This document shows positions 3,092 through 20,075 of a stretch of 25,888 nucleotides of DNA, piece after piece. The number at the start of each line of letters is the position of its first letter. Position 1 is the stretch's first letter. A model generated the notes under the pieces. The model did not search any database. It worked only from the letters and a program-made list of their open reading frames with translations, and had not been told where the DNA came from. Source of the stretch: a virus (lineage: Duplodnaviria; Caudoviricetes); the IMG/VR virus record IMGVR_UViG_3300033076_000693, positions 1 to 25,888 of that record; one strand, given 5' to 3'. A program made the position numbers and the translations under genes.

Positions 3092-3219
3092 CGCGGCCCC
3101 CATTGAAGAAGCGCATACATGATCATCGCGACGATGTAAGTGGCCCACGCTGGTCCGCGAGATAGATGCGGCGCGATGCAGATTATTCCGCAAAGGCCGA
3201 TGAATTGTGCTGTTGTCAT
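3088..3219 (-). CDS. small hydrophobic (probable membrane) protein, 43 aa
   Basis: Hand translation MTTAQFIGLCGIICIAPHLSRGPAWATYIVAMIMYALLQWGPR; GGAGG RBS; ATGA overlaps at both ends. Confidence 0.65.
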   Translation of the reverse strand: MTTAQFIGLCGIICIAPHLSRGPAWATYIVAMIMYALLQWGPR

Positions 3220-3659
3220 CGCGGGGCCTCCGGTGCTGCGGCGAGCATGGCGGCGTAAGACTTCTCGAACATCATCTGCGGCGACATGCGGAAGCCGAGC
3301 GGCGCGATGCAGCCAAGTTTCAGCCCGTGCGCGTCGATGGCCGCGTTGAGCATTTCGTCAGTCGGCACGACCGGAACCAACTTCCATCCCGTCGGCACCT
3401 TCCCGGCCATGCGGGCGAGGACGGCGGCGCGGGCGTTTTCCGGCTCGCCGTCGGGGGCTAGATCAAATTCATCGTCTCGTATCATTTGAAGATAATGATC
3501 CAGCACCGCCGCATCCTCCGGCCCCGGCTGCGGCGTGAGGGGGGCGGCAGCGTTCCACGCTGCCTCGCAGTCGTTCATGTGCTTGGTGTCGGCCCCGCGC
3601 GTGCGGAAGGTTCGGTTGTACCAACGCTCGAACGGTGTCAGGTCGTCGGGGTCAGCCAT
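3216..3659 (-). CDS. mosaic phage accessory protein with GWKLVPxxPTxEM...YxAMLAAAP module
   Basis: VPTGWKLVPVVPTDEMLNAA...YAAMLAAAP is a common module of phage early accessory proteins; carries anchors A, B and C. Confidence 0.75.
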   Translation of the reverse strand: MADPDDLTPFERWYNRTFRTRGADTKHMNDCEAAWNAAAPLTPQPGPEDAAVLDHYLQMIRDDEFDLAPDGEPENARAAVLARMAGKVPTGWKLVPVVPTDEMLNAAIDAHGLKLGCIAPLGFRMSPQMMFEKSYAAMLAAAPEAPR

Positions 3660-3671
3660 GCTCGCTTCCTT

Positions 3672-3848
3672 TCATTCGCAAGACAGGTCGGGACGGTGGG
3701 GGTCGTAGACGTCTTTTTCCTTGCGGGCTTTTATCGCGCAGATTGCGTGCTGCGTACGCCAACCACCGTTGTGGCGCTCGAAATGCCCGTCGCCAGCTTT
3801 GACCAGCTTGTCGCAGCGGTAGCAAATCCCGGGGTATTTATTTCGCAC
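3672..3848 (-). CDS. small putative Zn-binding phage protein, 58 aa
   Basis: Hand translation from GTG with AAGGAG RBS: MRNKYPGICYRCDKLVKAGDGHFERHNGGWRTQHAICAIK... (CxxC...HxxC). Confidence 0.7.
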   Translation of the reverse strand: MRNKYPGICYRCDKLVKAGDGHFERHNGGWRTQHAICAIKARKEKDVYDPHRPDLSCE

Positions 3849-4290
3849 CGGTCGGCTCCTTGGTCTTGAGTGCGCGGGCGTATGCGACGGCTTTGCGAAG
3901 CTGCCGAAGCGCGAACCCCGGACCTTGGCCGACGAATTGTTCTTCGGTGATGTCCAATCCCTCGATCAGCGCGAAAGTGTCCTTGCACGCCGCCAGCGCG
4001 GCAGACAGGCGTTGACGGGCTTCAAGGTGCTCGTCTGCTCGATTGCGCTGGAACACGGCATCGGCCCGCGCCTCGCCTAATGATTGGTGCAGCCCCGCCA
4101 TGTGGCGGCGCAGGGCTTCCCCGTGTGCAGGATCGGTGAAGCGGGCAAGCAGTTCCTCTCGGTAGTCACCGCTTTCTGTTTTATGAGGCACGCGACGAAC
4201 CAGACGCCACCCGTCATGCGTGACGATCAACGCCTCGTCGTCAGGCGCGACCTCGACGGGCTGCGCGGTCATCGGGTCACGCTTTGGCAC
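3838..4290 (-). CDS. hypothetical protein (MPKRDPMTA start), coiled-coil rich
   Basis: GGAGG RBS and GTG start lie inside anchor E; same start as 18629..18871. Confidence 0.7.
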   Translation of the reverse strand: MPKRDPMTAQPVEVAPDDEALIVTHDGWRLVRRVPHKTESGDYREELLARFTDPAHGEALRRHMAGLHQSLGEARADAVFQRNRADEHLEARQRLSAALAACKDTFALIEGLDITEEQFVGQGPGFALRQLRKAVAYARALKTKEPTGAK

Positions 4291-5179
4291 GGTCGCCTCC
4301 TTCCGATGCGAGTGCGGCATCAACTTGGTTTGATATACGGGCTTTCTCGAATGCCCCGCGAGACGTACTCGGCAACCAGTAGCGCAAGCCGTCCGCAGCC
4401 TCGCGCAACGCAGCAGCCAGCCGGTCGGCGCGGGCTTTCTCTGCATCACGCTCTGCCTTGAATTGCTCGCCAGCATTGAAGGCGTCGCTCCACCGCTGGT
4501 TTGCCGTGAGCGCGTTGTCCTGAGCGTCAAGGGCGGCTTTCTGTGCGGATTTCAGCCAGCCATCCAACTCCCGCACGCGGGCCTCGGCTTTGTCGATGCG
4601 GTCGGCGGCTTCTTCATTGAGCAGAAACGTCGGATCGTCGTTCCGCAACCGCGCCACCAGATCGTCGGCGGGGGCGGGCTTGTTCCACGCTTTCGCAAAC
4701 TCCTTGTCGGGGCCGATGTACGGCGGGCGCGGTGTCAGCCCATGCGTCAGCAATTCCGTAAGCTGCTTGTTCGCGGGTAGGTCTGCGATGCGCTCGCCGT
4801 CTGCCGGTGTAAAAGGAGCGGCGGCGCTCTCCGGACCTTCGCGCTCGCCTATGGGGTCCACATCCTCACGCACGGGAACCGAAGCAGCCATGCTTGACTC
4901 GGCCTCACCAGTGCTAGCGGGCGTCCGGCCCAATTCCTTCGCCTCGGCCTCACGGCGCTTCTTCCACTCCGCGATCCGTGGCGTGCAGGGGCCGGCGCAT
5001 GTTCCGACGCACGGGTGCCCGCCGCAGAAATCACCGTACTGCGGTTCGCGCTGCTCGGCCTCCCGGCGCGCGGCTTCTTCGCGGAAGAACTCAGCGACGG
5101 TTAAATTCGGGTACTCGTAACCACGCTTCCACACGTCAGCCAAGTCCCGCAGCATCGGCGGCGTCAGGCGGTCGGTCAT
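4277..5179 (-). CDS. modular mosaic accessory protein, MTDRLTPP family copy 1 (Ead/Ea22-like architecture)
   Basis: 300 aa, ATGA-coupled; contains EEAADRIDKAEARVREL coiled coil and anchors J, I, H, G, F shared with 19147..19827. Confidence 0.75.
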   Translation of the reverse strand: MTDRLTPPMLRDLADVWKRGYEYPNLTVAEFFREEAARREAEQREPQYGDFCGGHPCVGTCAGPCTPRIAEWKKRREAEAKELGRTPASTGEAESSMAASVPVREDVDPIGEREGPESAAAPFTPADGERIADLPANKQLTELLTHGLTPRPPYIGPDKEFAKAWNKPAPADDLVARLRNDDPTFLLNEEAADRIDKAEARVRELDGWLKSAQKAALDAQDNALTANQRWSDAFNAGEQFKAERDAEKARADRLAAALREAADGLRYWLPSTSRGAFEKARISNQVDAALASEGGDRAKA

Positions 5180-5439: not shown

Positions 5440-5609
5440 GCCTCGATCCCCCGCTCCGCGCCGACGATCTCCATCGCCTGCCGCAAGCGCGCGACCAGCT
5501 CGGTCGTGGTGAAATTCATCGCCGTTTGGTAGGCGACGACCTGCGCGTGGAAGGCGGGAAGCTCGGCCTTCAGGCGCAGCATGATGAGATCCGCATCGAC
5601 ATTCGACAT
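5436..5609 (-). CDS. hypothetical protein, 57 aa
   Basis: Hand translation MSNVDADLIMLRLKAELPAFHAQVV...; AAGGAG RBS; stop overlaps next ATG. Confidence 0.7.
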   Translation of the reverse strand: MSNVDADLIMLRLKAELPAFHAQVVAYQTAMNFTTTELVARLRQAMEIVGAERGIEA

Positions 5610-5651
5610 TTCATTTCTCCTTGGTTGGCAATCGGACGATGACAGGGATTG

Positions 5652-5686: not shown

Positions 5687-6100
5687 TCAAAAGTTGTAGT
5701 CGTGGAACTTGTGGCGACCAACCGAGACGCTGCCGCCCTGCTGGCGCGTGCCGTAGCCCGCACGCTTCCACAGGCGGCGCTCGTTGCCCTCCTCGTCCTT
5801 CCAGCGGCGCAGCGTCAACGTGACCAGAGAACCGGCAGCGTCGGCTTCGTAGGTGTAGGTCTGCGACGACTGGTTCGTGCAGTGGCCGACGAAGCCGCCG
5901 GGGATCACCTCCGGCTTCCAATCTGGCGACAGCGTCGCCTTGTCGCACCGTGCGACGATGCGCGTCGGGGTGACCTTCAAGACCGTGTAGGCGTCGGCGT
6001 CGGTGTAGACGCTGACCGTGATGCCGTCGCCCGGCTTGACGGCGGCGATCTCGGCGGCGCGGGCGTTGAGTTCGGCAGTGCGTTCGGAAACGTAGGTCAT
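5687..6100 (-). CDS. hypothetical phage protein, first gene after leader copy 1
   Basis: GGAG RBS then ATG at 6100; phage-like codon usage; ends GRHKFHDYNF. Confidence 0.75.
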   Translation of the reverse strand: MTYVSERTAELNARAAEIAAVKPGDGITVSVYTDADAYTVLKVTPTRIVARCDKATLSPDWKPEVIPGGFVGHCTNQSSQTYTYEADAAGSLVTLTLRRWKDEEGNERRLWKRAGYGTRQQGGSVSVGRHKFHDYNF

Positions 6101-6175
6101 GTGGATCACTCCTGTCTGGGCGGGTCAAAAGCGACCCTGCCCACGAAATATCGCCGATACGTCAATCAGTGTCAA
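6098..6175 (-). promoter_or_regulatory. conserved promoter + hairpin leader, copy 1
   Basis: TTGACACTGATTGAC...AGGGTCgcttttGACCCgccc...GGAG...ATG. Confidence 0.7.
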
Positions 6176-6455: not shown

Positions 6456-8093
6456 CTAGAATGCGATGTCTTCCCCAGTTGGAAAAACAACAACCCGCGC
6501 TCCGCTCTCCCGCACCTGCAGATCGCGCGTATCGACGATTTCCGTAAACTTTCCATTCCTTTTAATTGCGATTTCACCGGGCACCTTCAGCGTTTGCGTT
6601 TTCGTGAGCGCCTCCGTCACCGTCGCGGGCGGAACCTTCTCGCCTGTGCGCTCCCACCACCACCGCGCCGCCTTCGTGCGCGCGTAGCCCTGATGCTCAA
6701 AACAGACCCACTCGCGATGCGTCGTGTAGCCAGTGTCGTAGGTCACGACCATGCTGTCCGGCTTGCCTTCCTTCTGGTGGCGACGATACGAAACGCTATC
6801 GACGGCAATCCACTCCGGTCGGTTGTCGCTCAGAACTTTATGCGCGCTCGCGATAGGCACGATCTTCAACTCGCGCGGCGGGAATACGTATCCACAATCC
6901 GGGCACTCCAGCACGCTCGCGTGAACCATGCTCGCGCACTCGGGGCATTCCTTGACGGGAGCCTCGCCGTCGCCCTTCCCCGGCTCCTTCGGGTTGACGG
7001 CATCGATGGGGCCGTGGCGCTCGATATTTTTTGCAAAATCTAAAATCAGACAATTCTCCTTGCCCGGCGACAGGCGCATGCCGCGCCCGCAGATCTGGAC
7101 GTAGAGGCCCGTCGATCCCGTGGGGCGTGCCATCGTGATGAGATCTACGGCAGGCGCGTTGAAGCCCGTCGTCAGCACGCCCATCGAACACAGGCATGTA
7201 ATGCGCCCCGCCTTGAACTCGCGGATGATGCGGTCGCGCTCGGTCTTCGGTGTGTCCCCTAGGATCACCTCGCACGAATAGCCGCGCTCGCGGAAGATCG
7301 CCGCAAGGTGATGCGCGTGGTCCTTCCCTGAGGCGAACACGAGCCACGATTTGCGGTTCTGCGCCGTCGCCCAGTGGATCGTCTCGTTGACGACGGCGGT
7401 GTTTACGTCGACCTTGTCGACCGCCTTCTGGAGCTGGTCGGGGATGTACTCGCCGCCGCGCTTGCCGACGCCCGTGACGTCGAGCGTCGTCTCGGTTGCC
7501 TTGGTGACCAGCGGCGACAGGTAGCCCTCCTTGACCGCGCGCAGGACGTCGTAATCGTAGGCAATACCGTCGAACATGCGATCATCGCCCCGGTCGAGCC
7601 GCCCGCTGTCGAGCCGGTAGGGCGTCGCCGTCAGGCCGATGACCTTGACGTAGGGGTTGGCGAGCTTCAGCACCTTGAAGAGCTGACCGTAGCGCGTGTC
7701 GCTGTCGCGCGGGATCATGTGGGCCTCATCGACCAGCACGAGATCGACCTTGCCGAATTTATGCGCGTGCTTGGCGACCGACTGCACGCCGCAGAAAATG
7801 ATCTGCTGGTGATAGTCGCGCCGACCGATCCCCGCGCTGTTGATCCCGGCGGGCGCATCCGGCCAGAGGCCAATCAGCTCGCCGTAGTTCTGGGCGATCA
7901 GCTCCTTGACGTGCGTCACGATCAGGATCTTGCTGTCCGGGTGATCGTCCAGCACGCGCCCGCAGAAGGCCGCGATCACGAGCGACTTGCCAGTGCCGGT
8001 CGGCAGCACGACGAGCGGATTGCCCTCCTCGTTTTCAAACCACGAGAAAATGCCATCGATGGCGTCGTGCTGATAATCACGCAGTGTCAGCAT
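6456..8093 (-). CDS. superfamily II DEAH helicase, RadD/YejH-like with Zn finger
   Basis: LRDYQ Q-motif, PTGTGKS Walker A, DEAH, GLTATP, QICGRGMR, CPEC...CPDC. Confidence 0.92.
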   Translation of the reverse strand: MLTLRDYQHDAIDGIFSWFENEEGNPLVVLPTGTGKSLVIAAFCGRVLDDHPDSKILIVTHVKELIAQNYGELIGLWPDAPAGINSAGIGRRDYHQQIIFCGVQSVAKHAHKFGKVDLVLVDEAHMIPRDSDTRYGQLFKVLKLANPYVKVIGLTATPYRLDSGRLDRGDDRMFDGIAYDYDVLRAVKEGYLSPLVTKATETTLDVTGVGKRGGEYIPDQLQKAVDKVDVNTAVVNETIHWATAQNRKSWLVFASGKDHAHHLAAIFRERGYSCEVILGDTPKTERDRIIREFKAGRITCLCSMGVLTTGFNAPAVDLITMARPTGSTGLYVQICGRGMRLSPGKENCLILDFAKNIERHGPIDAVNPKEPGKGDGEAPVKECPECASMVHASVLECPDCGYVFPPRELKIVPIASAHKVLSDNRPEWIAVDSVSYRRHQKEGKPDSMVVTYDTGYTTHREWVCFEHQGYARTKAARWWWERTGEKVPPATVTEALTKTQTLKVPGEIAIKRNGKFTEIVDTRDLQVRESGARVVVFPTGEDIAF

Positions 8094-9054
8094 TCGTGCC
8101 TCCGTCCACCCACGTCGAGCCATCCGGTCGCGTGTACTCGATCCAGTCGTCGCCCGCGTCGGTCTGCTCCCACGGCACGAGCGCCGGGATTAACAGGTGC
8201 GCCGGGCAACCTTGGCGCTGCTTGTCGAAGGCCAGAACCTCATCGAAGCGCGCACAGTGCCATGTGCCATCGTCCATCGGCGTGGCGTGGATGCAGGTGC
8301 GGCAGCCATTGTGAGCGGCGATCCTGTCGCGGTCGTGGCAGACGTCCTGATGATCGCACCAGTGGCACTGAAACCACGAGGGATCGTCCGAGATACGCGC
8401 GGGCGGCGTCGGCGACTGGATGACGCGCTTGGCCTTCGCGATGATGCGGATGGCGTCGGCCTCGTCGTATGCCGTGCGGCATGTCACGACGTCGCGCACG
8501 CCGGGCGTGCAGGCCGTCAGATAGTGACGGTCCACGCCCATGTAATGCATGTAGATCTGCGCCTGCGCGTAGTAAATCTCGTCCCACGCTTTAAGCGCAT
8601 TCTTCTCGCCATGCTCGTGCTTCAGCTTGGCGAGCGCATCGACCTTCTTCTGATCGACGACCTTGTTTTCCCAGACGTGCCACGTCTTGGGGGCTTGTAG
8701 CAGACCAAGGATCATGCCATCGAGGTGCCCGCGAAAGTGACCGCCGAAATCTTCAAAGCCGATCTGCTCGGAGCTGTCTTCCGGCGTCGTGTGCAGCGTA
8801 ATGGCTTTCACCATTTGCAGGCGGGACGCCATGATCGCCTCACCCGTATGGCCGTCGTGAATGCGACGGAGGCCCTTGGCGTCGATCTTGCGCGGGCTGG
8901 CGTGGCGGAAGTCCAGCCACGATTTGCGCTCGCAGGCGTGCCCGATGCCCGACGCGCCGAGATACTTGCGCGGTGGCTGGGCGGCTTCGTACGCGACCAT
9001 AGCCTCGTCGATGGCCTGCATCGTGGGGTCTTGCGTGTCGGGGATTTTAGCCAT
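8077..9054 (-). CDS. Cas4-like PD-(D/E)XK phage exonuclease
   Basis: YLGASGIGHACER, GHLDG...WENK, QAQIYM, CHWCDHQDVC plus CRTC...C; located in a recombination module. Confidence 0.8.
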   Translation of the reverse strand: MAKIPDTQDPTMQAIDEAMVAYEAAQPPRKYLGASGIGHACERKSWLDFRHASPRKIDAKGLRRIHDGHTGEAIMASRLQMVKAITLHTTPEDSSEQIGFEDFGGHFRGHLDGMILGLLQAPKTWHVWENKVVDQKKVDALAKLKHEHGEKNALKAWDEIYYAQAQIYMHYMGVDRHYLTACTPGVRDVVTCRTAYDEADAIRIIAKAKRVIQSPTPPARISDDPSWFQCHWCDHQDVCHDRDRIAAHNGCRTCIHATPMDDGTWHCARFDEVLAFDKQRQGCPAHLLIPALVPWEQTDAGDDWIEYTRPDGSTWVDGGTNADTA

Positions 9055-9065
9055 TGGCCCTCGTC

Positions 9066-9105
9066 AGAAAGAAACCCCCGGCGACTGCTAATCCAGCCGC
9101 CGGGG
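9066..9105 (-). terminator. Rho-independent terminator after the SSB gene
   Basis: Minus strand ccccggcggctg-gattag-cagtcgccgggg followed by gtttctttct. Confidence 0.7.
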
Positions 9106-9113
9106 TGCCGTGG

Positions 9114-9644
9114 TCACGCGCGCTTGGCGCGCTCCCACGGCTTGCCGCCCGTCGCCGCCGGGGTTGCAGGCTTCGCCGCAGCCGGTGCGGGACGCGCGGT
9201 AGGCGCAGGACGCCCCGCAGGCTTGGTGGCAGGCTTTGCCGCCGGTTCGCCTTCCGGCTTGTAGCTGAAGGCGTTCTGCACGCCGCCCCGCTGCTTGTCG
9301 GGCACGAGGCGCGCCTTCGCGACGAACGGGATCTGATGCAGCTCCTCGCTGTCGTCGACCCGCAACTTGCCGACGGCGTGGCAGATTGCCGACAGCGTGC
9401 GCTGCGCGATCTCGACGGCCTGCGCGTTGGCGTTGTCGAGGTTGAGGCGATCCCAGATCTTCCGGTTGGCGTACTCGCCGTCGAGGATCTGCATCTCCAG
9501 CCACAGGTAATTCCCGTTGCCATCCTTCGTCGCGCGCATTTCGCTCGCGACGATCTCGACACGGTAGTCGCCGACCGGCAGCGGCTCGAAATCGGCTGCC
9601 GGGGGCACTGCCTCCGCGTCGAACGTCTGTCCCAAACTTGCCAT
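9114..9644 (-). CDS. DUF669-family phage single-stranded DNA-binding protein
   Basis: FEPLPVGDYRVEIVASEMRATKDGNGNYLWLEMQILDGEYANRKIWDRLNL...; Pro/Ala-rich tail ending KPWER; in-frame upstream ATG at 9749. Confidence 0.8.
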   Translation of the reverse strand: MASLGQTFDAEAVPPAADFEPLPVGDYRVEIVASEMRATKDGNGNYLWLEMQILDGEYANRKIWDRLNLDNANAQAVEIAQRTLSAICHAVGKLRVDDSEELHQIPFVAKARLVPDKQRGGVQNAFSYKPEGEPAAKPATKPAGRPAPTARPAPAAAKPATPAATGGKPWERAKRA

Positions 9645-9745
9645 TACTCCATTCCTTTCATTCATCCAGATTTCGATTGCCTTCATTCGATCTTCGACAA
9701 TGTCAGGCACAAGCCTGAAGCGGTCAAAGATTTCGTCGTAGCCGC

Positions 9746-10582
9746 TCATGCGGCTGCCTTCTTGCCTCCCTTCTTCGGCTGCTCCGGCTGGGGCTGCTCC
9801 GCCTCGGCCTCTTCGGCGGGAGCGGCGTCCTGACCGCCCTGCGCTTTTTCAAGGCGTGCGGAGAACGTCGCCCAGTCGAGCGGGCAATCGGTGCCAATGC
9901 GCCAGCGGCTCTTCGCGGTGAAGCCGGGGCGCTCCTCCAGATAGATCGTGCGCTGGCCGGTGCCCTTGCCCTTCGCGATCTTCTTGTTGAAGCCCGCGTC
10001 GATTTCCTTGATTGCGACGCGGAAATTCACGAAGCCCACGATGTCGGCCCACTCGCACAACGTGCTGGCCGCGTTCTTGTGGAGGTCCGGGCCGTAGCGG
10101 TCGTAGCCGTCGACTGTCGGATCCTCAAACCGCTTGATGGCGGCGTGGCCGATCAGGATGACGCCCATGCCGCGCTCGTTCCGCAGGATGTCGAGGCCCT
10201 CCAGCAGCATCGACCAGCGGGACTGGGCGAAAACGTAGCCCTTGCCGTAGCCGATGTCCTCGATGGAGCTGACCTTCTGCTCCTGCGCGACATCCTTCCA
10301 GATGAGCTGCTCCAGCCAGTCCACGCTGTCGATGGCGACCGTCTTGAACGCATGCTCCTCCTCGTAGAGCGCGCCGACGGCCTCCATGACGTCGCCGAAG
10401 GAACGCGCCAGTGGGAAGGCATTGACGTCGAGCGCGTCGAGGCCGTCTTCGGTCTGGATGAACACGGGCGACGGTGCTGCCGCCGCAAACGTGGACTTGC
10501 CCACGCCGTGAATGCCGTAGGCAAGAATGCGTGGCGGTCGCTTGACCGACGTCTTGCGAAGCGACGCGAGATTGATTGCCAT
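9746..10582 (-). CDS. Sak4-like (AAA_24) ATPase / single-strand annealing recombinase
   Basis: YGIHGVGKST Walker A, IQTEDG, TVAIDSVDWLE, GYGKGY, ILIGHA, EWADIVGF, AKSRW. Confidence 0.82.
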   Translation of the reverse strand: MAINLASLRKTSVKRPPRILAYGIHGVGKSTFAAAAPSPVFIQTEDGLDALDVNAFPLARSFGDVMEAVGALYEEEHAFKTVAIDSVDWLEQLIWKDVAQEQKVSSIEDIGYGKGYVFAQSRWSMLLEGLDILRNERGMGVILIGHAAIKRFEDPTVDGYDRYGPDLHKNAASTLCEWADIVGFVNFRVAIKEIDAGFNKKIAKGKGTGQRTIYLEERPGFTAKSRWRIGTDCPLDWATFSARLEKAQGGQDAAPAEEAEAEQPQPEQPKKGGKKAAA

Positions 10583-11923: not shown

Positions 11924-14169
11924 CATCGCCCTTCGCTACCATCGGCCAGCGCCTGATCGATCTCGGTTACAGCGCAATCCCCATTGTGCCGGGCGAAAAA
12001 CGCCCCGGCGCATTCATGCGCGGAGAGTGGCGCGGGATGAAGGAGTGGGAACGCTACTGCGACCGCCTGCCGACCACGTTCGAGATCAACAATTGGGAGA
12101 AGTGGCCCGACGCGGGCGTGTGCGTGGCGCTGGGGCGCGCCTCCAATCTCGTCGCCATCGACTTCGATTACGGCCCTGACAAGCTGCGCGCCGAGCTGGA
12201 GGCCCTGCTGCCCCCGTCGCCTGTGAAGAAGAAGGGTGCCAAGGGCTACACGGCGTTCTATCGCGGCTCCGACATTGCCGCGCGCAAGTGGCGCGTCGGC
12301 GGCCAGTCGGTCATGGAGATCCTCGGGCATGGTCGGCAGACGGTCCTGCCGCCGACGATCCACCCCGACGGCATGCCGTATGCGTGGCTGACCGAAGACA
12401 CGCTGGAGAATACGTCTGCCCGTGAGCTGCCCGAGCTGCCGGAGGATCTGATCGAGCGCGTCGAGCGCGTCATCGCACCTTGGCAGACAGACGAGGACAA
12501 GGCCCCGCTCGTCAAGCGCAGCGTCGTGATCGGCGAGAACGACAGCTACTGGCGCGAGATCAACGACCGCGCGATGGCGGATTTCGGCGCGTGGGTGCCG
12601 GAGCTGTTCCCGATGGCGAGGGCGCGCCCCGACGGCTCGTACCGCGTGATCGCGCACTGGCGAAACTGCGAGCGGCCTAATGTCGCGATCCATCCCGACG
12701 GCATTACCGACTGGGGCGAAGGTCGAAGCTTCACGCCGCTCGACCTTGTCATGGCGGCGGCGTCGAGTGATCTGGAGACGGCAACAAACTGGCTGAAAGA
12801 GCGCGTCGGAATGCCCAACGTCGAGCCTATGCTTCTCCAACAGATGAAGGCGACGTCGCAGGCCAAGCCGCAGGAGGAACCGGAAATCGTGGCGGTACCT
12901 GCGCCTCGCGTCGATCCTGTGGCACCCGGCTTCTTTGAGCTTGGCGGTGTGATGCAGACGCTGTTCGATCACATCATTGCGTCGGCCCGCCGCCCGCAGC
13001 CGATCCTCGCCGTCGGCGCGTGCATTGCCGCCATCGGCGTGCTGGGTGGCCGCAAATACAAGACGACGACGGGGCTGCGCTCGAATGTGTACGTCGTCGG
13101 CATCGCCGACAGCGGCAGCGGCAAGAACATCGCGCGCGAGATCATCAATCGCGCGTTCTTCGACGCCGGGCTGTCGGAGTATCTTGGCGGCCACAAGATC
13201 GCTTCGGGTGCTGGTCTTCTGTCAGCCGTCGCGCGTCATCCGGCGATCCTGTTCCAGCAAGACGAGTTTGGGCAATTCATGTCGGCCATCGCCGACCGCA
13301 AGCGAAGCCCGCGCCATCTGACGGAAATCATCGATCACCTGACCGATCTCTACACCGCCGCGAACGGCGTCTTCCTCGGCACCGAGTACGGCAACCAGAA
13401 AGAAAATCCGCGCAAGGAAATCATCCAGCCGCATGTGTGCCTGCACGGCACGACGACGCCGGGGCAGTTCTGGTCCGCGCTGCAATCGGGTAACACTCTT
13501 GACGGTTCGCTCGCGCGCTACCTCATATTCCAGACCGAGGAGAGCTATCCCGATCCGCAGAAAATAAACGGCGAGATCGTTTTGTCCGAAGAGCTGCTCG
13601 ACGGGCTTCGTGCCGTCGCGTGGCCGCCCGGCGCGAATGGAAATCTGACGCAGTTCATGGCGACGGGCGATGTGCCGCCGCAGCAGCTCGTCACGGTGCC
13701 GATGGACGCCGACGCCGAGGCACGCCTCGACGAGTTGAGCGAGACGATCAACGAGCGGCAGCGGCTTCTCGCGGGCACGCAATACACCGCGATCCTCGCA
13801 CGCCAGTGGGAATACACCAGCCGCGTTGCGATGATCCGCGCGATCTCGCGCTCGCCCGGCGATCCGGTGATCACGCTCGCCGACGTCAAGTGGTCGGAGT
13901 TGGTCGTGCAGCGCAGCGTCGAGCTTCTGTGCGACGGCATCGAGCGCCACGTCGCCGACAACGCGGCGGAGGGTCAGGTCAAGCGGACGCTGGAAATCAT
14001 TCGCGCCGCCGGGCGCGAGGGCATCACGCGGTCGGCGCTGATCCGGGCCACGCACTTTCTCGGGCGCGACCGGGACGCGGTGATCAAGAGCTTGATCGAG
14101 GCCGAGAGCGTTTTTTCGGAAATCAGGCCCACCTCGACCAAGCCGACGACGATTTATCGCGCAAAATAG
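11920..14169 (+). CDS. bifunctional primase-polymerase domain fused to DUF3987-like ATPase/helicase
   Basis: GYSAIPIVPGEKRP, LVAIDFD, GRQTVLPPTIHPDGMPYAW (Prim-Pol); ADSGSGKN Walker A, QDEFG, GSLARYL; GTGA coupling to rusA. Confidence 0.85.
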   Translation: MTSPFATIGQRLIDLGYSAIPIVPGEKRPGAFMRGEWRGMKEWERYCDRLPTTFEINNWEKWPDAGVCVALGRASNLVAIDFDYGPDKLRAELEALLPPSPVKKKGAKGYTAFYRGSDIAARKWRVGGQSVMEILGHGRQTVLPPTIHPDGMPYAWLTEDTLENTSARELPELPEDLIERVERVIAPWQTDEDKAPLVKRSVVIGENDSYWREINDRAMADFGAWVPELFPMARARPDGSYRVIAHWRNCERPNVAIHPDGITDWGEGRSFTPLDLVMAAASSDLETATNWLKERVGMPNVEPMLLQQMKATSQAKPQEEPEIVAVPAPRVDPVAPGFFELGGVMQTLFDHIIASARRPQPILAVGACIAAIGVLGGRKYKTTTGLRSNVYVVGIADSGSGKNIAREIINRAFFDAGLSEYLGGHKIASGAGLLSAVARHPAILFQQDEFGQFMSAIADRKRSPRHLTEIIDHLTDLYTAANGVFLGTEYGNQKENPRKEIIQPHVCLHGTTTPGQFWSALQSGNTLDGSLARYLIFQTEESYPDPQKINGEIVLSEELLDGLRAVAWPPGANGNLTQFMATGDVPPQQLVTVPMDADAEARLDELSETINERQRLLAGTQYTAILARQWEYTSRVAMIRAISRSPGDPVITLADVKWSELVVQRSVELLCDGIERHVADNAAEGQVKRTLEIIRAAGREGITRSALIRATHFLGRDRDAVIKSLIEAESVFSEIRPTSTKPTTIYRAK

Positions 14170-14185
14170 GGCTTAAAATAGCCTA

Positions 14186-14262
14186 TTGACACCGATTGAC
14201 GTTTAAGCTTATTCTGTCTGGGTAGGGTCAATTCCGACCCGCCAACGGGAGTTACCCAAATG
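14186..14262 (+). promoter_or_regulatory. conserved promoter + hairpin leader, copy 2
   Basis: TTGACACCGATTGAC...TATTCT...AGGGTCaattccGACCCgcca...GGAG...ATG. Confidence 0.7.
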
Positions 14263-14448
14263 CGCGTTTCCCCAAACATGAACCTTCTGGAACTGGCTTT
14301 TGCAATGGGCGGCAACGTCACGCCCGACCACGCTCGCGCCATGCGCGACGAGCTGGTGCGCCTGCGCCCCGGCTGCGACACCGACAGCATCTGGGCTGGC
14401 GAGTGGGATGCCATGATCCATCGCGCAGCCATTTTCGCGGAGGCCTGA
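14260..14448 (+). CDS. hypothetical protein (62 aa)
   Basis: GGAG RBS; first gene after leader copy 2. Confidence 0.7.
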   Translation: MRVSPNMNLLELAFAMGGNVTPDHARAMRDELVRLRPGCDTDSIWAGEWDAMIHRAAIFAEA

Positions 14449-14451
14449 GCC

Positions 14452-14979
14452 ATGCTGAAAGTTCCCGCCAAAGATCCGAGCCGCACCAATTGGTGCGGCC
14501 CCACGGCCATCGCGATCCTGACCGGCAAGACCTACGCCGAGGCGCGCGATCTCGCCGCCATCGCCAAGGTCAAGGGCGGTCGCTCCGCCAAGCGTGTCGT
14601 CAAGGGCCTCGGCTCTTCCGCCATCGTTCGCGCCCTGAAGCGCGCCGACGTCAAGCTCATCGGCTCGTGGCAGAAGTTCATCGAGAAGCCGACGCTGATG
14701 CGCCTCGACGAGCGCCTCAAGCCGCGCCGGTTCTATCTCGTGATCACCGGCAACCACTACGTCACCGTCAACACGCACGACTGGACCGTCTGCTGCAACT
14801 GGTCGCGGGCATGGGTGGCGCTCCGCGATCACCCGTTCAACCGCACGCGCGTCACCGAGGTGATCGAGGTCACCCCCGCCCCGGAAGCGTTCGGGACCAG
14901 CGCGCCGGTCGCCGAGCCTGCCCAGCCCGCCAAGGTCGAGTACCTCGGCGTCCAGTTCATCGATGAAATCGCAGCCTGA
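14452..14979 (+). CDS. hypothetical protein, possible papain/C39-like Cys-His fold
   Basis: NWCGPTAIAILTG...FYLVITGNHYVTV; GGAGG RBS. Confidence 0.6.
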   Translation: MLKVPAKDPSRTNWCGPTAIAILTGKTYAEARDLAAIAKVKGGRSAKRVVKGLGSSAIVRALKRADVKLIGSWQKFIEKPTLMRLDERLKPRRFYLVITGNHYVTVNTHDWTVCCNWSRAWVALRDHPFNRTRVTEVIEVTPAPEAFGTSAPVAEPAQPAKVEYLGVQFIDEIAA

Positions 14980-14991
14980 AGGAGAATGAAA

Positions 14992-15279
14992 ATGAAGACC
15001 CACTACAAAGTCCATCTGGAAGGCAGCGGCGTCATCGCCTCGTGCGCCTTTGCCGCGCACGCCGTGATGATCCACGCGCAGTACATGCAGGCCACGATCA
15101 AGTGGGGCGGCCTGACGCTGCTCGGCAAGGGCGAGCATATCGGTATGCCGACCGCCGTGATGGAGGATCGCCGCCTGAAGAAGCTCGACGCGGCGCGCAT
15201 CAAGTGGGAGGCCGCGCAGGAACGCTACAAAGCCGAGATGGCCGCTCGCAACACCGAAGCCCTGATCGAGAGGAGTTGA
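14992..15279 (+). CDS. hypothetical protein
   Basis: AAGGAG RBS; strong GC3 codon bias. Confidence 0.7.
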   Translation: MKTHYKVHLEGSGVIASCAFAAHAVMIHAQYMQATIKWGGLTLLGKGEHIGMPTAVMEDRRLKKLDAARIKWEAAQERYKAEMAARNTEALIERS

Positions 15280-15281
15280 AA

Positions 15282-15494
15282 ATGACCCCCGCCGACGCCG
15301 TTTTGGAGATCGCCCGGATCTCCCGCGCAGACTACCGCCGCAGGGCCGATGGCAAGGCGCTGGGACGCGCTCTGGACGTGCTGGGCGTCAAGACCCCCGA
15401 CGAGCGCCTCCGGGTCGCCCACAGCCTCGATTTCGCCGATCCTGACGGCAATGCGTACCCCGTCCGGGGCGGCGACCCCATTCGGTTCTGGTAA
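15282..15494 (+). CDS. hypothetical protein (70 aa)
   Basis: AGGAG RBS; MTPADAVLEIARISRADY... Confidence 0.65.
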   Translation: MTPADAVLEIARISRADYRRRADGKALGRALDVLGVKTPDERLRVAHSLDFADPDGNAYPVRGGDPIRFW

Positions 15495-15504
15495 AAGGTT
15501 AACG

Positions 15505-15539
15505 CCGGAGGCGGCTGGACCCCGCCTCCGGATTTTCTT
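15505..15539 (+). terminator. Rho-independent terminator
   Basis: ccggaggcgg-ctggacc-ccgcctccgg followed by attttctt. Confidence 0.7.
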
Positions 15540-15550
15540 CAAAAGAGCTA

Positions 15551-15624
15551 TTGACGCCAATTGCTGTTGGTGTATTCTCCTTTTCGAGGGTCGCTTTTGA
15601 CCCCGCCAGATGGAGCTACCGATG
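15551..15624 (+). promoter_or_regulatory. conserved promoter + hairpin leader, copy 3
   Basis: TTGACGCCAATTG...TATTCT...AGGGTCgcttttGACCCcgcca...GGAG...ATG. Confidence 0.7.
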
Positions 15625-16482
15625 ACCAAGTCCTTCGCCGACGAAATGGAAGAACTTCTGAACGCCCCGGCCCGCACGGCCCCCGCGCCGATGCCGGAGA
15701 TCGTCAAGGTCGCCGAGGCCGCCGAGCGCCGCATCATCGAGAACTGCCCGAAGTGCCGGGGCACCGGTCGCTTCATCAGCTATTCCGGTCGCCCCCTCGG
15801 CGAGTGCTTCACCTGCAAGGGCGCTGGCAAGAAGGCCTTCGCCAACGCCGCCCCGGTGCGTGCCGCGAACCGCGAGAAGGCCGCCGCCCGCCGCGAGGCC
15901 GCCAAGGCCGAAGTGGTCAACGGCTTCGCCGCCGCCCACCCCGCAATCCACGCTTGGCTCGTCGCCAAGGCCCCCACCTTCGGTTTCGCCGCGTCGCTGC
16001 TGGAGGGCGTCCAGAAGTTCGGCAGCCTGACGGAGAAGCAAATCGCCGCCGCCGAGCGCCTGATGGCCTCGGACGCCGAGCGCGACGCCCAGCGGGCCGC
16101 GCAGCGCGCCGCCGCCCCGGTCGCCAAGACCTACCCCGCTCTGACGGCTGTCGTCACTGCCTTCGCGCATGTCACCATCGGCCAGATCGGCTTCAGCAAA
16201 AAGAACGGCGAGCCGCTCTGGTGGGTCAAGTCGGGCGATGCCCTCGTCGGCAAGCTCGACGCCGACGGCCTCCAGCTCTGGAACGGCAAGATCGCCAAGG
16301 CCGGTCTAGACCGCGCCGCCATCGAGGCCGCCCTCGACGAGATCGAGCGCGACCCGAAGCTCGCTCTCGCGGCCCACGGCCACGCCACGGGCAGCTGCGG
16401 CTGCTGCGGTCGCGAGCTGACCGACCCAGAGAGCATCGAGCGCGGCATTGGCCCGATCTGCGCTGGCAAAATCGGCTTCTGA
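15622..16482 (+). CDS. Zn-finger protein with C-terminal DUF6011-like domain
   Basis: CPKCRGTG...CFTCKGAG (DnaJ-type CxxCxGxG) and CGCCGRELTDPESIERGIGPIC. Confidence 0.8.
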   Translation: MTKSFADEMEELLNAPARTAPAPMPEIVKVAEAAERRIIENCPKCRGTGRFISYSGRPLGECFTCKGAGKKAFANAAPVRAANREKAAARREAAKAEVVNGFAAAHPAIHAWLVAKAPTFGFAASLLEGVQKFGSLTEKQIAAAERLMASDAERDAQRAAQRAAAPVAKTYPALTAVVTAFAHVTIGQIGFSKKNGEPLWWVKSGDALVGKLDADGLQLWNGKIAKAGLDRAAIEAALDEIERDPKLALAAHGHATGSCGCCGRELTDPESIERGIGPICAGKIGF

Positions 16483-16491
16483 GGCAAACAA

Positions 16492-16514
16492 GGGAGGGGC
16501 ATCATGCCCCTCCC
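16492..16514. repeat. perfect inverted repeat just upstream of an RBS
   Basis: gggaggggcat-c-atgcccctccc; no U-tract. Confidence 0.6.
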
Positions 16515-16527
16515 GCAGGAGGATCCC

Positions 16528-16797
16528 ATGGCAGACCACCACCACCAGATCATCGGCATGCATCTCGGTCGCGGCGACCGTGCCGTCGATCTCGACGTCG
16601 TCGCGACGTACACGTATCGGGCCGGATATCCCGGCAAGCTCTGGGGGCCGCCCGAGCATTGCTATCCGCCGGAAGGCCCCGAGGTCGAACTGGTTGCGCT
16701 TTTCGCGGGTGCCGTCGATCTGCTGCCCCTGATCGACGACGACATCCGCGACGAAATTATCGACACCATCTGTGAAAACCACAACGAGGAGTACTAA
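16528..16797 (+). CDS. hypothetical phage protein
   Basis: GGAGG RBS; GKLWGPPEHCYPPEGPEVE motif. Confidence 0.75.
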   Translation: MADHHHQIIGMHLGRGDRAVDLDVVATYTYRAGYPGKLWGPPEHCYPPEGPEVELVALFAGAVDLLPLIDDDIRDEIIDTICENHNEEY

Positions 16798-16798
16798 G

Positions 16799-16978
16799 AT
16801 GAAGATCCGCACAACGCACGACCCGCGCGCCCTGCTCCCCTCGTGGGAGTGGATCGCAGTCGACGACGACACCTATGACGGTGCGCCGGATGCAGGCCCG
16901 CGCGCTCGTGCCATCGGCTACGGTGCGACCGAGGCCGAAGCCATTGCCGACCTCAAGGAGCAGCTCGATGTCGAGTGA
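16799..16978 (+). CDS. small phage protein (59 aa)
   Basis: GAGGAG RBS; WIAVDDDTYDGAPD...IGYGATEAEAIADL. Confidence 0.75.
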   Translation: MKIRTTHDPRALLPSWEWIAVDDDTYDGAPDAGPRARAIGYGATEAEAIADLKEQLDVE

Positions 16979-17177
16979 AGGGATCGAATACGAAGCCGAA
17001 GTTTACTGGTCGACGGCGCAATATATCGCCGACGCCAAGCGCCTCGGCGTGTACCTGACCAAGGACGACATCGCACAAATCCGGGCAAACGCGATGCGCC
17101 TGCAGGCGAGCCGCTTTGCCAGCGTGCGCCGCTGCGCCCGGAGTTTGCCGGTCGTCGTCGTCAACGCGCCTGCGTGA
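16968..17177 (+). CDS. hypothetical protein (69 aa)
   Basis: AAGGAG RBS; MSSEGIEYEAEVYW... Confidence 0.6.
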   Translation: MSSEGIEYEAEVYWSTAQYIADAKRLGVYLTKDDIAQIRANAMRLQASRFASVRRCARSLPVVVVNAPA

Positions 17178-17463
17178 GACTGAACGCATACTCCGTCACG
17201 AGGACGCGCCGGGACGGCAGGCCGAGTTGTTTTAGCACAAGCACCATGTTGTGCGCGCCCGATGTGTAGTCCCATTCGTAGACATGCGGGATTGGCATCT
17301 TGGCGTGTGCCCCGCGCAGCCTGTAGGTAAAGCGGCGGCTGTTGGACATGTCTTGGCCGTACCATGCTTGCTCCACGAACAGGTCTTCACCTGACGGAAT
17401 AACCGTCAATCTGTACAGCAGACGACGCGGCGCGCGAGCGCGCTTCAGGTATGGCTGCGTCAT
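17161..17463 (-). CDS. hypothetical protein (100 aa)
   Basis: GGAGG RBS and ATGA start lie inside anchor A; MTQPYLKRARAPRR... Confidence 0.6.
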   Translation of the reverse strand: MTQPYLKRARAPRRLLYRLTVIPSGEDLFVEQAWYGQDMSNSRRFTYRLRGAHAKMPIPHVYEWDYTSGAHNMVLVLKQLGLPSRRVLVTEYAFSLTQAR

Positions 17464-18314
17464 CGCGGGGCCTCCGGTGCTGCCGCGCCGATAAACGAAA
17501 TCTTGTAGTAGCCGCTCTTGGATCGGTGTTCTTGGTCGCAATAGCGACGGAACGCGGCCTCGTGAAGTTCGCCGGGCAGCATTTTAATGCTGGTGCCGAC
17601 CGTGCCACCCTTCCACGATCCCTTCTCTTTGCCCGTCTCGCCGGAGAATTCGATATTGAGAGTGCGTTCGATCTTTGGCTTGCGGAACCACGCAAGCCAC
17701 TTGAACCAGCCCTCGCCATGATGCCATTCGAGTTCTTCGATTCTCGTCTTGGCAATCTGTCGCTCGCCATCGTAATCAGCGAAAGCGAACTCGACGTGGG
17801 GGCAATCTTCTTCGGCCTTCTTCACTTGGTCCCAAATGTCGAAAAGCCGCCCCCTCGGTTCGGTCCATACGTGCTCGCCGTTCAGGCCATACAGACTGCG
17901 CCTAACATTACGATGTCCTTTCCACGGCAAGAACCAGCCCCACTGCTGCTGCACATCGCTATCGCCGCTTGGGCCACCTGTCCGTCCGTAGTAGACGGAG
18001 AGATGGCTGCCGCTCAGGCTGAAACCGTACTTGCGCGGATCGATGTTCCAATACCAGTTGCGCCCTAACCGTTCGACGGTCTGCGCATCCCAGTTAGGAT
18101 AGACCTTTTCGCGCCACGGCCGGATGATGTTCGGCAGCGCGACGATCAGTGTGGCGTTCTTCATGCTGATGCGCAGTGTGCACGTCCCAGTATCGTCACC
18201 GTCGCGATCTCCGCGTGATTTCAGAACCACGGCCCAGTGCGGATACGACGTGCTGTAAGACCAAGTGAACGGCCCAAAATAGCGGTCGTTGTCGCTCCAT
18301 CGCGCACGCATCAT
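17460..18314 (-). CDS. Trp-rich hypothetical phage protein
   Basis: AAGGAG RBS; RWSDNDRYFGPFT...EFSGETGKEKGSWKGGTVG; ends AAAPEAPR (anchor A). Confidence 0.75.
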   Translation of the reverse strand: MMRARWSDNDRYFGPFTWSYSTSYPHWAVVLKSRGDRDGDDTGTCTLRISMKNATLIVALPNIIRPWREKVYPNWDAQTVERLGRNWYWNIDPRKYGFSLSGSHLSVYYGRTGGPSGDSDVQQQWGWFLPWKGHRNVRRSLYGLNGEHVWTEPRGRLFDIWDQVKKAEEDCPHVEFAFADYDGERQIAKTRIEELEWHHGEGWFKWLAWFRKPKIERTLNIEFSGETGKEKGSWKGGTVGTSIKMLPGELHEAAFRRYCDQEHRSKSGYYKISFIGAAAPEAPR

Positions 18315-18315
18315 C

Positions 18316-18639
18316 TTATTTCTCCTTTTTGGAATCTGTCGGCGTCGTCGTCCCGCGCATCGCGGCGAGGACGGCTGCGCGGGCTGCTTCACACTCCTTG
18401 TCGTATCCCATGCGCCCGTCTGCGGCGTATCCTGCGGCGTCGATTAACGCATCCACCAGCGCCACGGCGTCCGCTGTCGGCTGCGGCGTGAGGGCGGCGA
18501 GTGCCGCTTGATAGCCCGCGATGTAGCTGTCGAATGCAGCGGTGTAATCGTCTCCGCTCCAATGCTTCGCCGCATACTCATCCGCTTGTTTCGCTCCCAG
18601 TTCCTCGGCGGGCGGGGTGGGGGTCATGTCACTTGCCAT
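18316..18639 (-). CDS. mosaic accessory protein sharing LTPQP and ARAAVLA anchors with 3216..3659
   Basis: Anchors C and B in frame; start at 18639 or 18627. Confidence 0.7.
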   Translation of the reverse strand: MASDMTPTPPAEELGAKQADEYAAKHWSGDDYTAAFDSYIAGYQAALAALTPQPTADAVALVDALIDAAGYAADGRMGYDKECEAARAAVLAAMRGTTTPTDSKKEK

Positions 18640-18871
18640 CGGGCTTGGTCCTCTCGGTGAGCGACTTTTCGAGCGCGTCAAACCGCCCGCACAAATGCGT
18701 CATGCGTTTGACGTTGCAGGGGAAGCACCACGGCCCCCAATAAGTGACGCATCCCTTCGCACCACACCCCGCGCACCTGACTCGTGGGCGTAGCTTATTG
18801 CTCGGGTGCGTTGCATCGGCCCACGCAGGCGGGTTTTCGGGCTTCGCGGTCATCGGGTCACGCTTTGGCAC
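18629..18871 (-). CDS. small Cys-rich (putative Zn-binding) protein with MPKRDPMTA start
   Basis: CAGCGAKGCVTYWGPWCFPCN; GGAGG + GTG start in anchor E. Confidence 0.7.
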   Translation of the reverse strand: MPKRDPMTAKPENPPAWADATHPSNKLRPRVRCAGCGAKGCVTYWGPWCFPCNVKRMTHLCGRFDALEKSLTERTKPDGK

Positions 18872-19154
18872 GGTCGCCTCCGTCGAGAAGGGCGCGGGTC
18901 GCCATGAGGACGGGATCGCCGCGCTCCATTGCGTCCACCGGATCACACGTTCCGCCGAGCGAAACGATGCGGTCTCGGCCCGATTCAATTGTGTTGACGT
19001 ACCCGCGATAGAGACGGCGCATCCCATCTTCCAGCGCAGCTATCCGCTCATCCTTCCGGCGCACGTCGTCATCGGTGTAGCCGACGGGTTCGTAATGAAC
19101 GACGCCAATATCTGGTCCAGTTGTTTTCTCGTGTCTGCGATACAGTTCAGCCAC
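18858..19154 (-). CDS. hypothetical protein, direct-repeat-flanked cassette
   Basis: LYRGYVNTIESGRDRIVSLGGTCDPVDAMERGDP; ends GGDRAKA like 4277..5179. Confidence 0.75.
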   Translation of the reverse strand: MAELYRRHEKTTGPDIGVVHYEPVGYTDDDVRRKDERIAALEDGMRRLYRGYVNTIESGRDRIVSLGGTCDPVDAMERGDPVLMATRALLDGGDRAKA

Positions 19155-19827
19155 GGTCGCCTCTTTCGGTCAGTGCCTGACGCGCCACAAGTCCCGCCTC
19201 CAGACATGGCGTGCAGCATGAATTATCCGCGATGCTCTTGAGCGCAGCAGCCAGCTTGTCGGCGCGGGCTTTCTCTGCCGCGAATAGCGCCTTGATTTCG
19301 TCGCGTGCGTTGAGCGCGTCCGCTTGCGCTTTGTAGTCGGTCTGCGCTTGGTGCGTGTTCGAGCGAGTAAAGCGCGACACAGCATCGCTCAACTTGTCGA
19401 TAGCGCGGTGCAGATCGTCGGCAGGGGCGGGCTTGTCCTCTGCGCGCCATTCATCGAGCGGCACATGCTTTCCGTCGCGCAGAACACCCGTTCCATGAAC
19501 CAGCGCGTCGGCGTTGGCCTTGTCCCATTCGGTTGGCTCGCCGCTTTTCCGAAAGTCATCGAGGATGCGCCGATAAGTGCCGTCAGGATCGGCGGGAGCG
19601 GCGGCGCTGCCCGGACCTTCGCGCGCCACTTGCGTGGCCGTCCGCACACCAGTTTCGACCCCGATGTGATCGTCCCGAATGACGGTGCGCGGATCAGGGG
19701 CCTCGGCCTCCCGGCGCGCGGCTTCTTCGCGGAGCCAGTCAGCCCAAGTTGAAGGACCGGCGAATCTCAGCCATGATGCCCACAGATGGGCCAAGTCCCG
19801 CAGCATCGGCGGCGTCAGGCGGTCCAT
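19147..19827 (-). CDS. modular mosaic accessory protein, MDRLTPP family copy 2
   Basis: ATG at 19827 (TAATG overlap); anchors J, I, H, G, F in frame. Confidence 0.75.
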   Translation of the reverse strand: MDRLTPPMLRDLAHLWASWLRFAGPSTWADWLREEAARREAEAPDPRTVIRDDHIGVETGVRTATQVAREGPGSAAAPADPDGTYRRILDDFRKSGEPTEWDKANADALVHGTGVLRDGKHVPLDEWRAEDKPAPADDLHRAIDKLSDAVSRFTRSNTHQAQTDYKAQADALNARDEIKALFAAEKARADKLAAALKSIADNSCCTPCLEAGLVARQALTERGDRG

Positions 19828-20075
19828 TAGCGTGTCTCCGTCTTTGCAAGGCAGCGGTTCGCTTCCGCAGGATCGTGCGCGAAATGCACTTCGGGATGAC
19901 CCCACTTGATGCGATTGCGGATGCCGCTTTCCCAGCGAACCGTAAAGACCTTCCGGCCCTTTTCGATGACGCGGCCATACAGGCATTGCAGACCCATTGC
20001 GCCTGTGTCGAAAAGCGTTTGCACGGTTTCGCCGCGACTTAACGTGCTCCATTGGGGCGTCAGGCGGTCGGTCAT
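19827..20075 (-). CDS. hypothetical protein (82 aa) with MTDRLTP start, direct-repeat-flanked cassette
   Basis: GAGGAG RBS; first 20 nt identical to the start of 4277..5179. Confidence 0.7.
   Translation of the reverse strand: MTDRLTPQWSTLSRGETVQTLFDTGAMGLQCLYGRVIEKGRKVFTVRWESGIRNRIKWGHPEVHFAHDPAEANRCLAKTETR

Follow-up and report, generated by a model that had tools for sequence, protein, structure and literature searches.

Evidence for anchor-guided shuffling of gene fragments and genes in phage accessory proteins

Do short conserved DNA sequences inside accessory genes serve as points at which phages exchange pieces of protein? This question is raised by the virus record IMGVR_UViG_3300033076_000693 (Duplodnaviria; Caudoviricetes) from IMG/VR, which we analyzed over its whole length of 25,888 bases (here named the window; completeness about 45%). 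A first-pass annotation had described two accessory arrays at positions 3215-5179 (array 1) and 17459-20075 (array 2), in which nine short anchors recur in the same order around unrelated modules, and had proposed that the anchors are reusable ports through which the slots between them are swapped between phages. Here, we established that the anchors exist, that they keep a fixed order in different phages and are conserved at synonymous sites, that the slots between them form a mosaic, and that block ends are enriched at their positions. As judged from sequence comparison, anchor-guided shuffling of fragments and genes in phage accessory proteins is well supported as a real phenomenon.

Two arrays share an ordered set of anchors

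The anchors form an ordered set of about ten different sequences of 17 to 44 nucleotides (nt), most of which lie in frame in small accessory genes. Upon recomputation, every identity given earlier for the nine collinear anchors proved correct, and all 16 spacer lengths (eight pairs) were reproduced. The anchors and their second copies are as follows:

5139-5173 and 19790-19824, minus strand: anchor J, 35/35 identical; gene start, peptide DRLTPPMLRDLA
5054-5085 and 19702-19733, minus strand: anchor I, 32/32; peptide REEAARREAE
4815-4844 and 19595-19624, minus strand: anchor H, 28/30; peptide REGPxSAAAP
4658-4683 and 19411-19436, minus strand: anchor G, 25/26; peptide KPAPADDL
4592-4612, minus strand: anchor X, peptide EAADRID; common to array 1 and relatives but lacking in array 2
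4409-4444 and 19243-19278, minus strand: anchor F, 34/36; peptide AEKARADxLAAA
4257-4300 and 18838-18881, with a partial extra copy at 19139-19171, minus strand: anchor E, 43/44
3525-3541 and 18478-18494, minus strand: anchor C, 17/17
3414-3434 and 18364-18384, minus strand: anchor B, 20/21
3215-3239 and 17459-17483, minus strand: anchor A, 25/25
2320-3091, minus strand: extension of array 1 with two small genes (2320-2559 and 2825-3091), a mini-scaffold of anchors M, K, and L with differing fillers

Anchors E and A span gene ends plus the next start; at its gene boundary, E combines a ribosome-site-like GGAGG with the stop of a gene and the start of the gene that follows. Anchor X as well as M, K, and L, which extend array 1 to position 2320, had been overlooked in the earlier annotation, as had partial tandem copies of J (20056-20075), E (19139-19171), and A (about 3087-3100), each of which flanks a single small gene.

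The two intervals have 75 17-mers in common, compared to a mean of 0.005 and a maximum of 1 in 200 Markov shuffles, and no shared 17-mer was found in any of 12 other window stretches. Between the anchors, spacer lengths in array 1 and array 2 are 53 versus 56 nt (J-I), 209 versus 77 nt (I-H), 131 versus 158 nt (H-G), 213 versus 132 nt (G-F), 108 versus 361 nt (F-E), 715 versus 343 nt (E-C), 90 versus 93 nt (C-B), and 174 versus 880 nt (B-A). The claim that this inter-anchor DNA is unrelated was confirmed at the protein level, contrary to an ordinary diverged duplication: spacers compared in same-strand frame pairs did not align, and in all eight slots at least 10 of 100 codon shuffles matched the observed protein score. 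At the DNA level, G-F alone was borderline (2/100 shuffles). The length difference is a multiple of three in all five intragenic slot pairs.

In run X2, each array is represented by its own unitigs at equal depth (5.6 to 6.0), and anchor E is merged into a 37-nt unitig at about triple depth (16.9). The presence of distinct unitigs for the two arrays rules out an assembly error or a chimeric contig as the source of the repeat structure, with the reservation that X2 is probably the source sample, so its unitigs give no independent support. Apparent joints in X2 turned out to be array-2 unitigs aligned to array 1 and were hence rejected as switched alleles. In the independent run X1, five of eight listed contig pieces match solely at an anchor, and one longer piece departs exactly at the edge of anchor A; a further joint, 19173-4406, is based on one low-depth contig.

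The scaffold proteins belong to an undescribed family

Anchors J to F are carried by one scaffold gene in each array:

4277-5179, minus strand: array-1 scaffold gene P0001, 300 amino acids (aa), with J, I, H, G, X, and F in frame; ends in E
19147-19827, minus strand: array-2 scaffold gene P0003, 226 aa, with J, I, H, G, and F and different fillers

A word search yielded 13 proteins, two of them encoded in the window, and a profile built from these retrieved 162 proteins at E ≤ 0.001, each standing for one 50% cluster, of which the 150 listed were used for slot and anchor counts. Anchor I occurs in 130 of these proteins, J in 101, F in 73, H in 72, G in 65, and X in 64, with zero to four false calls per anchor in shuffled proteins. 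Neither Pfam nor PHROGs holds a profile of the family, matches being to single members or generic coiled coils, and P0001 itself had no match to the profiles of either database. Mosaic Ead/Ea22-type early proteins had been cited as a known parallel, but the scaffold proteins are not members of that Pfam family (0/150 match PF13935 at E ≤ 0.001). No fiber or adhesin family was matched among the 150 proteins, and a cluster look-up of 10 proteins returned the annotation "hypothetical protein" alone. A literature search, with subscription journals poorly covered and supplements left out, found no account of these proteins, nor of any accessory scaffold with several anchors inside genes. By these searches, the scaffold proteins form an undescribed family of phage accessory proteins.

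An AlphaFold model of P0001 computed from the single sequence (predicted local distance difference test [pLDDT], 64; predicted template modeling score [pTM], 0.32) is mostly helical with low confidence. It shows two N-terminal helices, a low-confidence middle part, and a long C-terminal helix, and this predicted helical architecture is consistent with a tolerant scaffold. An Atlas neighbor search with the scaffold protein gave nothing that exceeded its own thresholds.

At the DNA level, the anchor H pattern located four viral loci, and a degenerate J pattern located 17 metagenome loci, three of which are family members (L008, L010, and L013; the L008 protein is that of L005). The remaining J-pattern loci were set aside as chance matches, and L001, in which the common part is a short I-H piece only, was dropped. 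Viral contigs contained no match to the exact E and J patterns, and array 1 had no blastn match among isolated phages. Seven cross-phage loci were usable (L004, L005, L010, L013, L038, L040, and L041). Anchor order is preserved in all seven, and throughout the family the anchors are the same peptides in the same frame. Anchor X matches at 21/21 positions in L038 and 19/21 in L004 and L013, anchor F at 31/31 in L013, and anchors K and L recur in L005 with their order kept.

Some loci show further features. P0094 carries a Lar restriction-alleviation domain, and the scaffold genes of L038 and L040 are flanked by Lar-like genes. L004 (near 10562 and 11333) and L038 (near 4406 and 4588) have their own repeated gene-boundary anchors, exact over at least 18 nt, around small genes. 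A second I-like match at L040:284-316, about 9.6 kb upstream of the scaffold gene of phage G004, may be due to chance.

Slots form a mosaic, and block ends are enriched at anchors

In 87 protein pairs, one slot is common at an identity of at least 60%. Comparison of the other slots of these pairs (146 comparisons) revealed 135 unrelated (<25%), 7 intermediate, and only 4 shared. Two or more slots are common (at least 75%) to different partners in 17 of the 150 proteins; P0013, for instance, has four slots in common with four partner sets, namely J-I with P0004 (95%), I-H with P0020 (87%), H-G with P0028 (85%), and X-F with P0017 (99%). The number of alleles is high (75 among 99 proteins for J-I, 56 among 70 for I-H, and 33 among 37 for H-G), and single fillers recur at 75 to 100% identity within proteins that are otherwise unrelated. 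Two fillers of the window are common to other phages from anchor to anchor: the G-F filler of P0003 to phage G002 (164 nt, 80% identity to L005) and the C-B filler of the 147-aa gene of array 1 to phage G001 (140 nt, 81% to L004).

Breakpoints were analyzed in 105 proteins with at least three anchors, in which 170 high-identity blocks were called independently of the slot definitions. After de-duplication, 228 of 445 block ends were located at most 2 residues from a primary anchor, with 115 expected. Counted pairwise, 324 of 636 ends (51%) were at anchors, compared to 26.6 ± 1.4% (maximum, 28.9%) in 20 simulated sets of random-breakpoint chimeras. Constant inter-anchor content without breakpoint enrichment had been named as the outcome that refutes exchange at reusable ports; tabulation of the relatives gave the opposite, with varied fillers and an about 2-fold enrichment of breakpoints at anchors, which speaks for the exchange of slots between phages.

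Anchors are conserved at synonymous sites

At the anchors, arrays 1 and 2 agree in 71 of 73 synonymous codons (31.5 expected). Against other phages, 103 of 117 are identical (53 expected), a count that leaves out whichever anchor had located each locus. As a control, conserved runs in the common helicase and terminase genes showed 46 of 79 identical codons (39 expected). In two filler-sharing genome pairs, anchors reached 40/48 versus 35/59 in the shared fillers (Fisher P = 0.01). Less common codons are retained across phages in anchors H (GAA, GGT, and GCT) and J (TTG). The window and five related records have six DNA matches at E ≤ 1e-5, all of them within the arrays, and the core proteins common to them are 30 to 37% identical. 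Therefore, these distant phages have the anchors and little else in common.

The sequence CGCCG is found on the coding strand of 8 of the 10 anchors (P = 0.002 versus GC-matched fragments; P = 0.0025 versus synonymous resampling of the anchor peptides; about 0.01, i.e., 32/3000, for any 5-mer), a motif that was picked post hoc in GC-rich, Ala-rich DNA. No longer anchor consensus was detected, the best 7-mer occurring in just 4 of 10 anchors, and a scan of the anchors for hairpins revealed none that is stable. As a post hoc finding, CGCCG gives a lead to a possible sequence-specific step.

Slot B-A of array 2 carries a predicted Acb3-family gene

Besides the scaffold genes, the arrays contain further genes with anchors:

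3216-3659, minus strand: 147-aa gene of array 1, with anchors C, B, and A in frame
18316-18639, minus strand: 107-aa gene of array 2, with anchors C and B
18858-19154, minus strand: 98-aa extra gene, with an anchor E copy on each side
19827-20075, minus strand: 82-aa gene directly upstream of the array-2 scaffold gene; begins with a 20-nt copy of the anchor J start (20/20 to 5160-5179)
17460-18317, minus strand: Acb3-family (anti-CBASS) gene, cargo of the array-2 slot B-A, with anchor A (17459-17483) as its final codons

The difference in F-E length (361 versus 108 nt) arises because the 98-aa extra gene sits in array 2. The protein encoded in slot B-A matches PF25187 over its full length (243/245 positions; E = 7.7e-69; 232.6 bits, with a cut-off of 27). 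By this profile match, the cargo of the slot is predicted to be an Acb3-family gene directed against the cyclic oligonucleotide-based antiphage signaling system (CBASS); Acb3 proteins have been reported to inhibit cGAS/DncV-like nucleotidyltransferases (CD-NTases) (10.1101/2025.07.23.666291). The family comprises 2,178 proteins at E ≤ 1e-20. Among the best 120 of these homologs, only one has the anchor-A peptide tail, the window's own protein, which suggests that an outside gene was captured into the scaffold. A blastn search with array 2 against isolated phages matched eight records, only inside the Acb3-family gene, and the protein sequence had no match among solved structures. Homologs are present in Synechococcus and Sulfitobacter phages, mostly annotated as hypothetical. 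In five relatives of the window, a search for Acb3 gave no match, but its control was silent as well, so that this negative carries no weight.

Probable short-homology exchange and alternative explanations

We consider it likely that the anchors are crossover points for ordinary short-homology recombination, by which pieces are exchanged slot by slot. Recombination at the anchors, which are the sole available homology because the fillers are unrelated, would take place between co-infecting phages or prophages that share a host group (probably Alphaproteobacteria), and the annealase would be whichever one a phage carries (Sak4 here, RecT in phage G005). A crossover at an anchor would preserve reading frame and translational coupling. 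Repeated exchange would homogenize the anchors, since lineages with drifting anchors would leave the pool. A new filler, of which the Acb3-family gene is an example, is likely to come in a single time through a non-homologous event and may then move as a portable allele. The pay-off would likely be a fast variation of early host-interaction and anti-defense functions, with the cargo as the sole hint. By analogy, the anchor lengths fit the minimal pairing segment of Red-beta, cited as 23 to 27 nt (PMC3945230).

Several points weigh against this reading. Of the pairwise block ends, 312 of 636 lie away from the six primary anchors, and five secondary motifs raise the count at anchors merely to 358, with 278 remaining elsewhere. 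Clustering at 50% drops pairs that are alike in all slots, so slot independence is overstated; near-identical slots beside unrelated ones are nevertheless real because clustering cannot produce them. The codon control is small (79 codons from three alignments), and the cross-phage DNA set consists of seven loci. No allele was switched between the arrays in the X2 contigs examined. Finally, none of 15 genome loci with the J pattern is a family member, and the host was not identified thereby.

A more far-reaching version of short-homology exchange appears unlikely. It holds that the anchors are selected cis-elements with a CGCCG core that make the early regions of unrelated phages one combinatorial library, that the coiled-coil scaffold would display swappable modules of 15 to 100 residues binding host defense proteins, and that captured anti-defense genes, such as Acb3, would be plug-in alleles.

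Alternatively, the anchors could be protein motifs under structural or partner selection, with random illegitimate recombination as the source of filler variation, selection keeping the products that are in frame and folded, and DNA identity being secondary. The constant peptides and frame of the anchors agree with this, as do the modeled positions of J and I within the two N-terminal helices and of X and F within one long helix, the half of block ends off the primary anchors, and the lack of boundary sequences at most phage mosaic junctions described in PMC3029335. However, synonymous conservation exceeds that expected from codon bias and that of core-gene motifs and shared fillers, the less common codons are kept at H and J, and anchors E and A cross gene boundaries, so that we regard protein motifs as the primary cause as quite unlikely. 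DNA and protein constraints are compatible, and selection at the protein level probably contributes alongside short-homology exchange.

Very doubtful is a dedicated shuffling system, in which the anchors would be cis sites bound through a short core by a specific protein, from the Sak4 module or elsewhere. The occurrence of CGCCG in 8 of 10 anchors is in line with it, as is the location of the following module between arrays 1 and 2:

6456-10582, minus strand: recombination module of helicase, Cas4-domain exonuclease, DUF669 single-stranded DNA-binding protein (SSB)-like gene, and Sak4-like annealase (profile matches)

This module is a plausible candidate for a local recombination engine. The suggested link of Sak4, SSB, and exonuclease to the anchors was not supported, however, as Sak4 had no match in related records (0/5 by protein search; 0/4 with the PF13479 profile, the window itself being positive), two of which are at least 90% complete. 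Phage G005 encodes RecT and an integrase, and G003 encodes a YqaJ exonuclease; since Sak4 was not found in relatives, which carry RecT or YqaJ instead, the recombination enzyme is not fixed. Furthermore, the anchors are unlike each other past five bases and lack a hairpin, the motif was chosen post hoc from biased DNA, and no site-specific recombinase was detected among the 53 + 5 window open reading frames (ORFs) scanned in this record, which is about 45% complete. Of the proposed shuffling system, anchor-guided exchange is thus retained, whereas no evidence was found for a dedicated site-specific machine.

An old duplication of an accessory operon, with the short motifs alone surviving divergence, would explain two collinear copies in one genome but is highly improbable and was rejected, being refuted by the slot mosaicism, by spacers that are unrelated and differ up to 5-fold in length while the anchors are near-identical at silent sites, and by fillers closer to those of other phages than to those of the other copy. 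Also, two arrays per genome are not a rule, since five of five relatives (two at least 90% complete and three under 90%) have one scaffold gene. This makes it more likely that the second array was acquired than that it is part of the design, and an origin in another phage of the pool is more likely than a duplication.

Comparison with known systems

Whether phage mosaicism reflects recombination at linkers or random joins filtered by selection is an old question (PMC3029335, PMC2839356). Botstein/Campbell linkers are described in PMC2839356, and short conserved boundary sequences are described in PMC3029335. The anchors resemble this lambdoid model in being short conserved DNA around unrelated modules in several phages, which would steer exchange to viable positions, in mosaic junctions that coincide with them (51% of block ends versus 27% in simulation, with about half elsewhere), and in the location of E and A at gene boundaries. 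In contrast to lambdoid linkers, I, H, G, X, F, C, and B are intragenic, boundary positions being limited to E, A, and the J start. Moreover, about ten distinct anchors follow each other in fixed order with a spacing of about 20 to 70 codons, and the exchanged unit is a protein fragment.

In T-even gp38 adhesins, hypervariable segments are separated by conserved glycine-rich motifs, in or close to which exchange takes place (PMC3157838). The alternation of conserved intragenic motifs with hypervariable segments is common to both systems. However, the scaffold proteins have no fiber or adhesin match and a helical model, and their anchors are mutually unlike and not glycine-rich. Their fillers are non-homologous and of very different length, and the scaffold crosses several genes as well as phages with unrelated core genes. 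The promoter early stem-loop (PeSL) of T4-type phages is one repeated intergenic promoter-terminator unit; accessory genes are inserted, deleted, and replaced there through short homologies (PMC2839356). Genes bounded by two copies of one anchor (E, J, or A) are similar to PeSL cassettes, but the anchors are coding, distinct from one another, and without a hairpin. In array 2 (16900-21000), promoter-like and terminator-like sites numbered one each, at or below the shuffle level.

Annealase-driven relaxed homologous recombination in temperate phages uses short pairing segments and tolerates divergence (PMC3945230) and would provide a sufficient enzyme mechanism for anchor exchange. Sak4, described as a weak annealase, anneals oligonucleotides that are up to 20% diverged; islands of 17 to 44 nt amid non-homology, such as the anchors, may differ from the substrates of this biochemistry (PMC5928155). 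Site-specific shufflons and integrons use one repeated recognition site and a cognate recombinase; the anchors have only a 5-nt core in common, and the scanned window ORFs include no recombinase (record about 45% complete). Ead/Ea22-type lambdoid early proteins are accessory, rich in coiled coils, and mosaic. The scaffold genes have a similar early-region neighborhood beside recombination genes and Lar-like genes, but they lack a PF13935 match, and the Atlas neighbor is below threshold (score, 0.80).

A survey of domain mosaicism in phages expects much undescribed mosaicism among accessory proteins of unknown function (PMC10684548). The principle is already known, and this case extends it to a form with many anchors inside genes and across phages, with added evidence from silent sites. 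In support of the linker side of the question, the family provides an exceptionally clear case inside genes that can be counted, based on 150 proteins, six slots, junction statistics, and the silent-site signal. It makes a direct test possible, in which an anchor is recoded while its peptide is kept. The region collects anti-defense cargo, the fillers are a candidate pool of host-interaction modules, and exchange at anchors most likely yields a large library of chimeric proteins.

Gene content of the window and related loci

The window encodes a GcrA homolog, a helicase, a Cas4-domain exonuclease, a DUF669 SSB-like protein, a Sak4-like annealase, a primase-polymerase, and a terminase. Features outside the arrays and the recombination module are as follows:

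577-1248, minus strand: GcrA homolog (PF07750, E = 1e-19)
11806-16775, plus strand: block with primase-polymerase and a 290-aa DUF6011/phrog_4046 protein
20975-21262, minus strand: phrog_1273 gene

GcrA points to an alphaproteobacterial host. The host group is probably Alphaproteobacteria because the homolog at 577-1248 is encoded; it is the sole host clue and a possible mimic of the cell-cycle regulator.

In L038, a phrog_11517 protein (2452-3072, plus strand) is encoded between the YqaJ exonuclease and a small gene of the phrog_18187 family, and a gene of the latter family follows RecT in L041. The phrog_11517 protein is a candidate for an unrecognized annealase.

The plus-strand block at 11806-16775 divides the two minus-strand early blocks. 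Two pairs of intergenic sequences show inverted similarity, 6098-6175 with 14186-14262 (80 nt, 72%) and 15550-15608 with 22366-22422 (60 nt, 82%). Both pairs are near the starts of oppositely oriented gene blocks and are possibly shared early promoters or regulatory sites. In run X2, contig depth over the phrog_1273 gene is high, and several joints fall at 21103-21236, which suggests that it is another widely shared mosaic gene.

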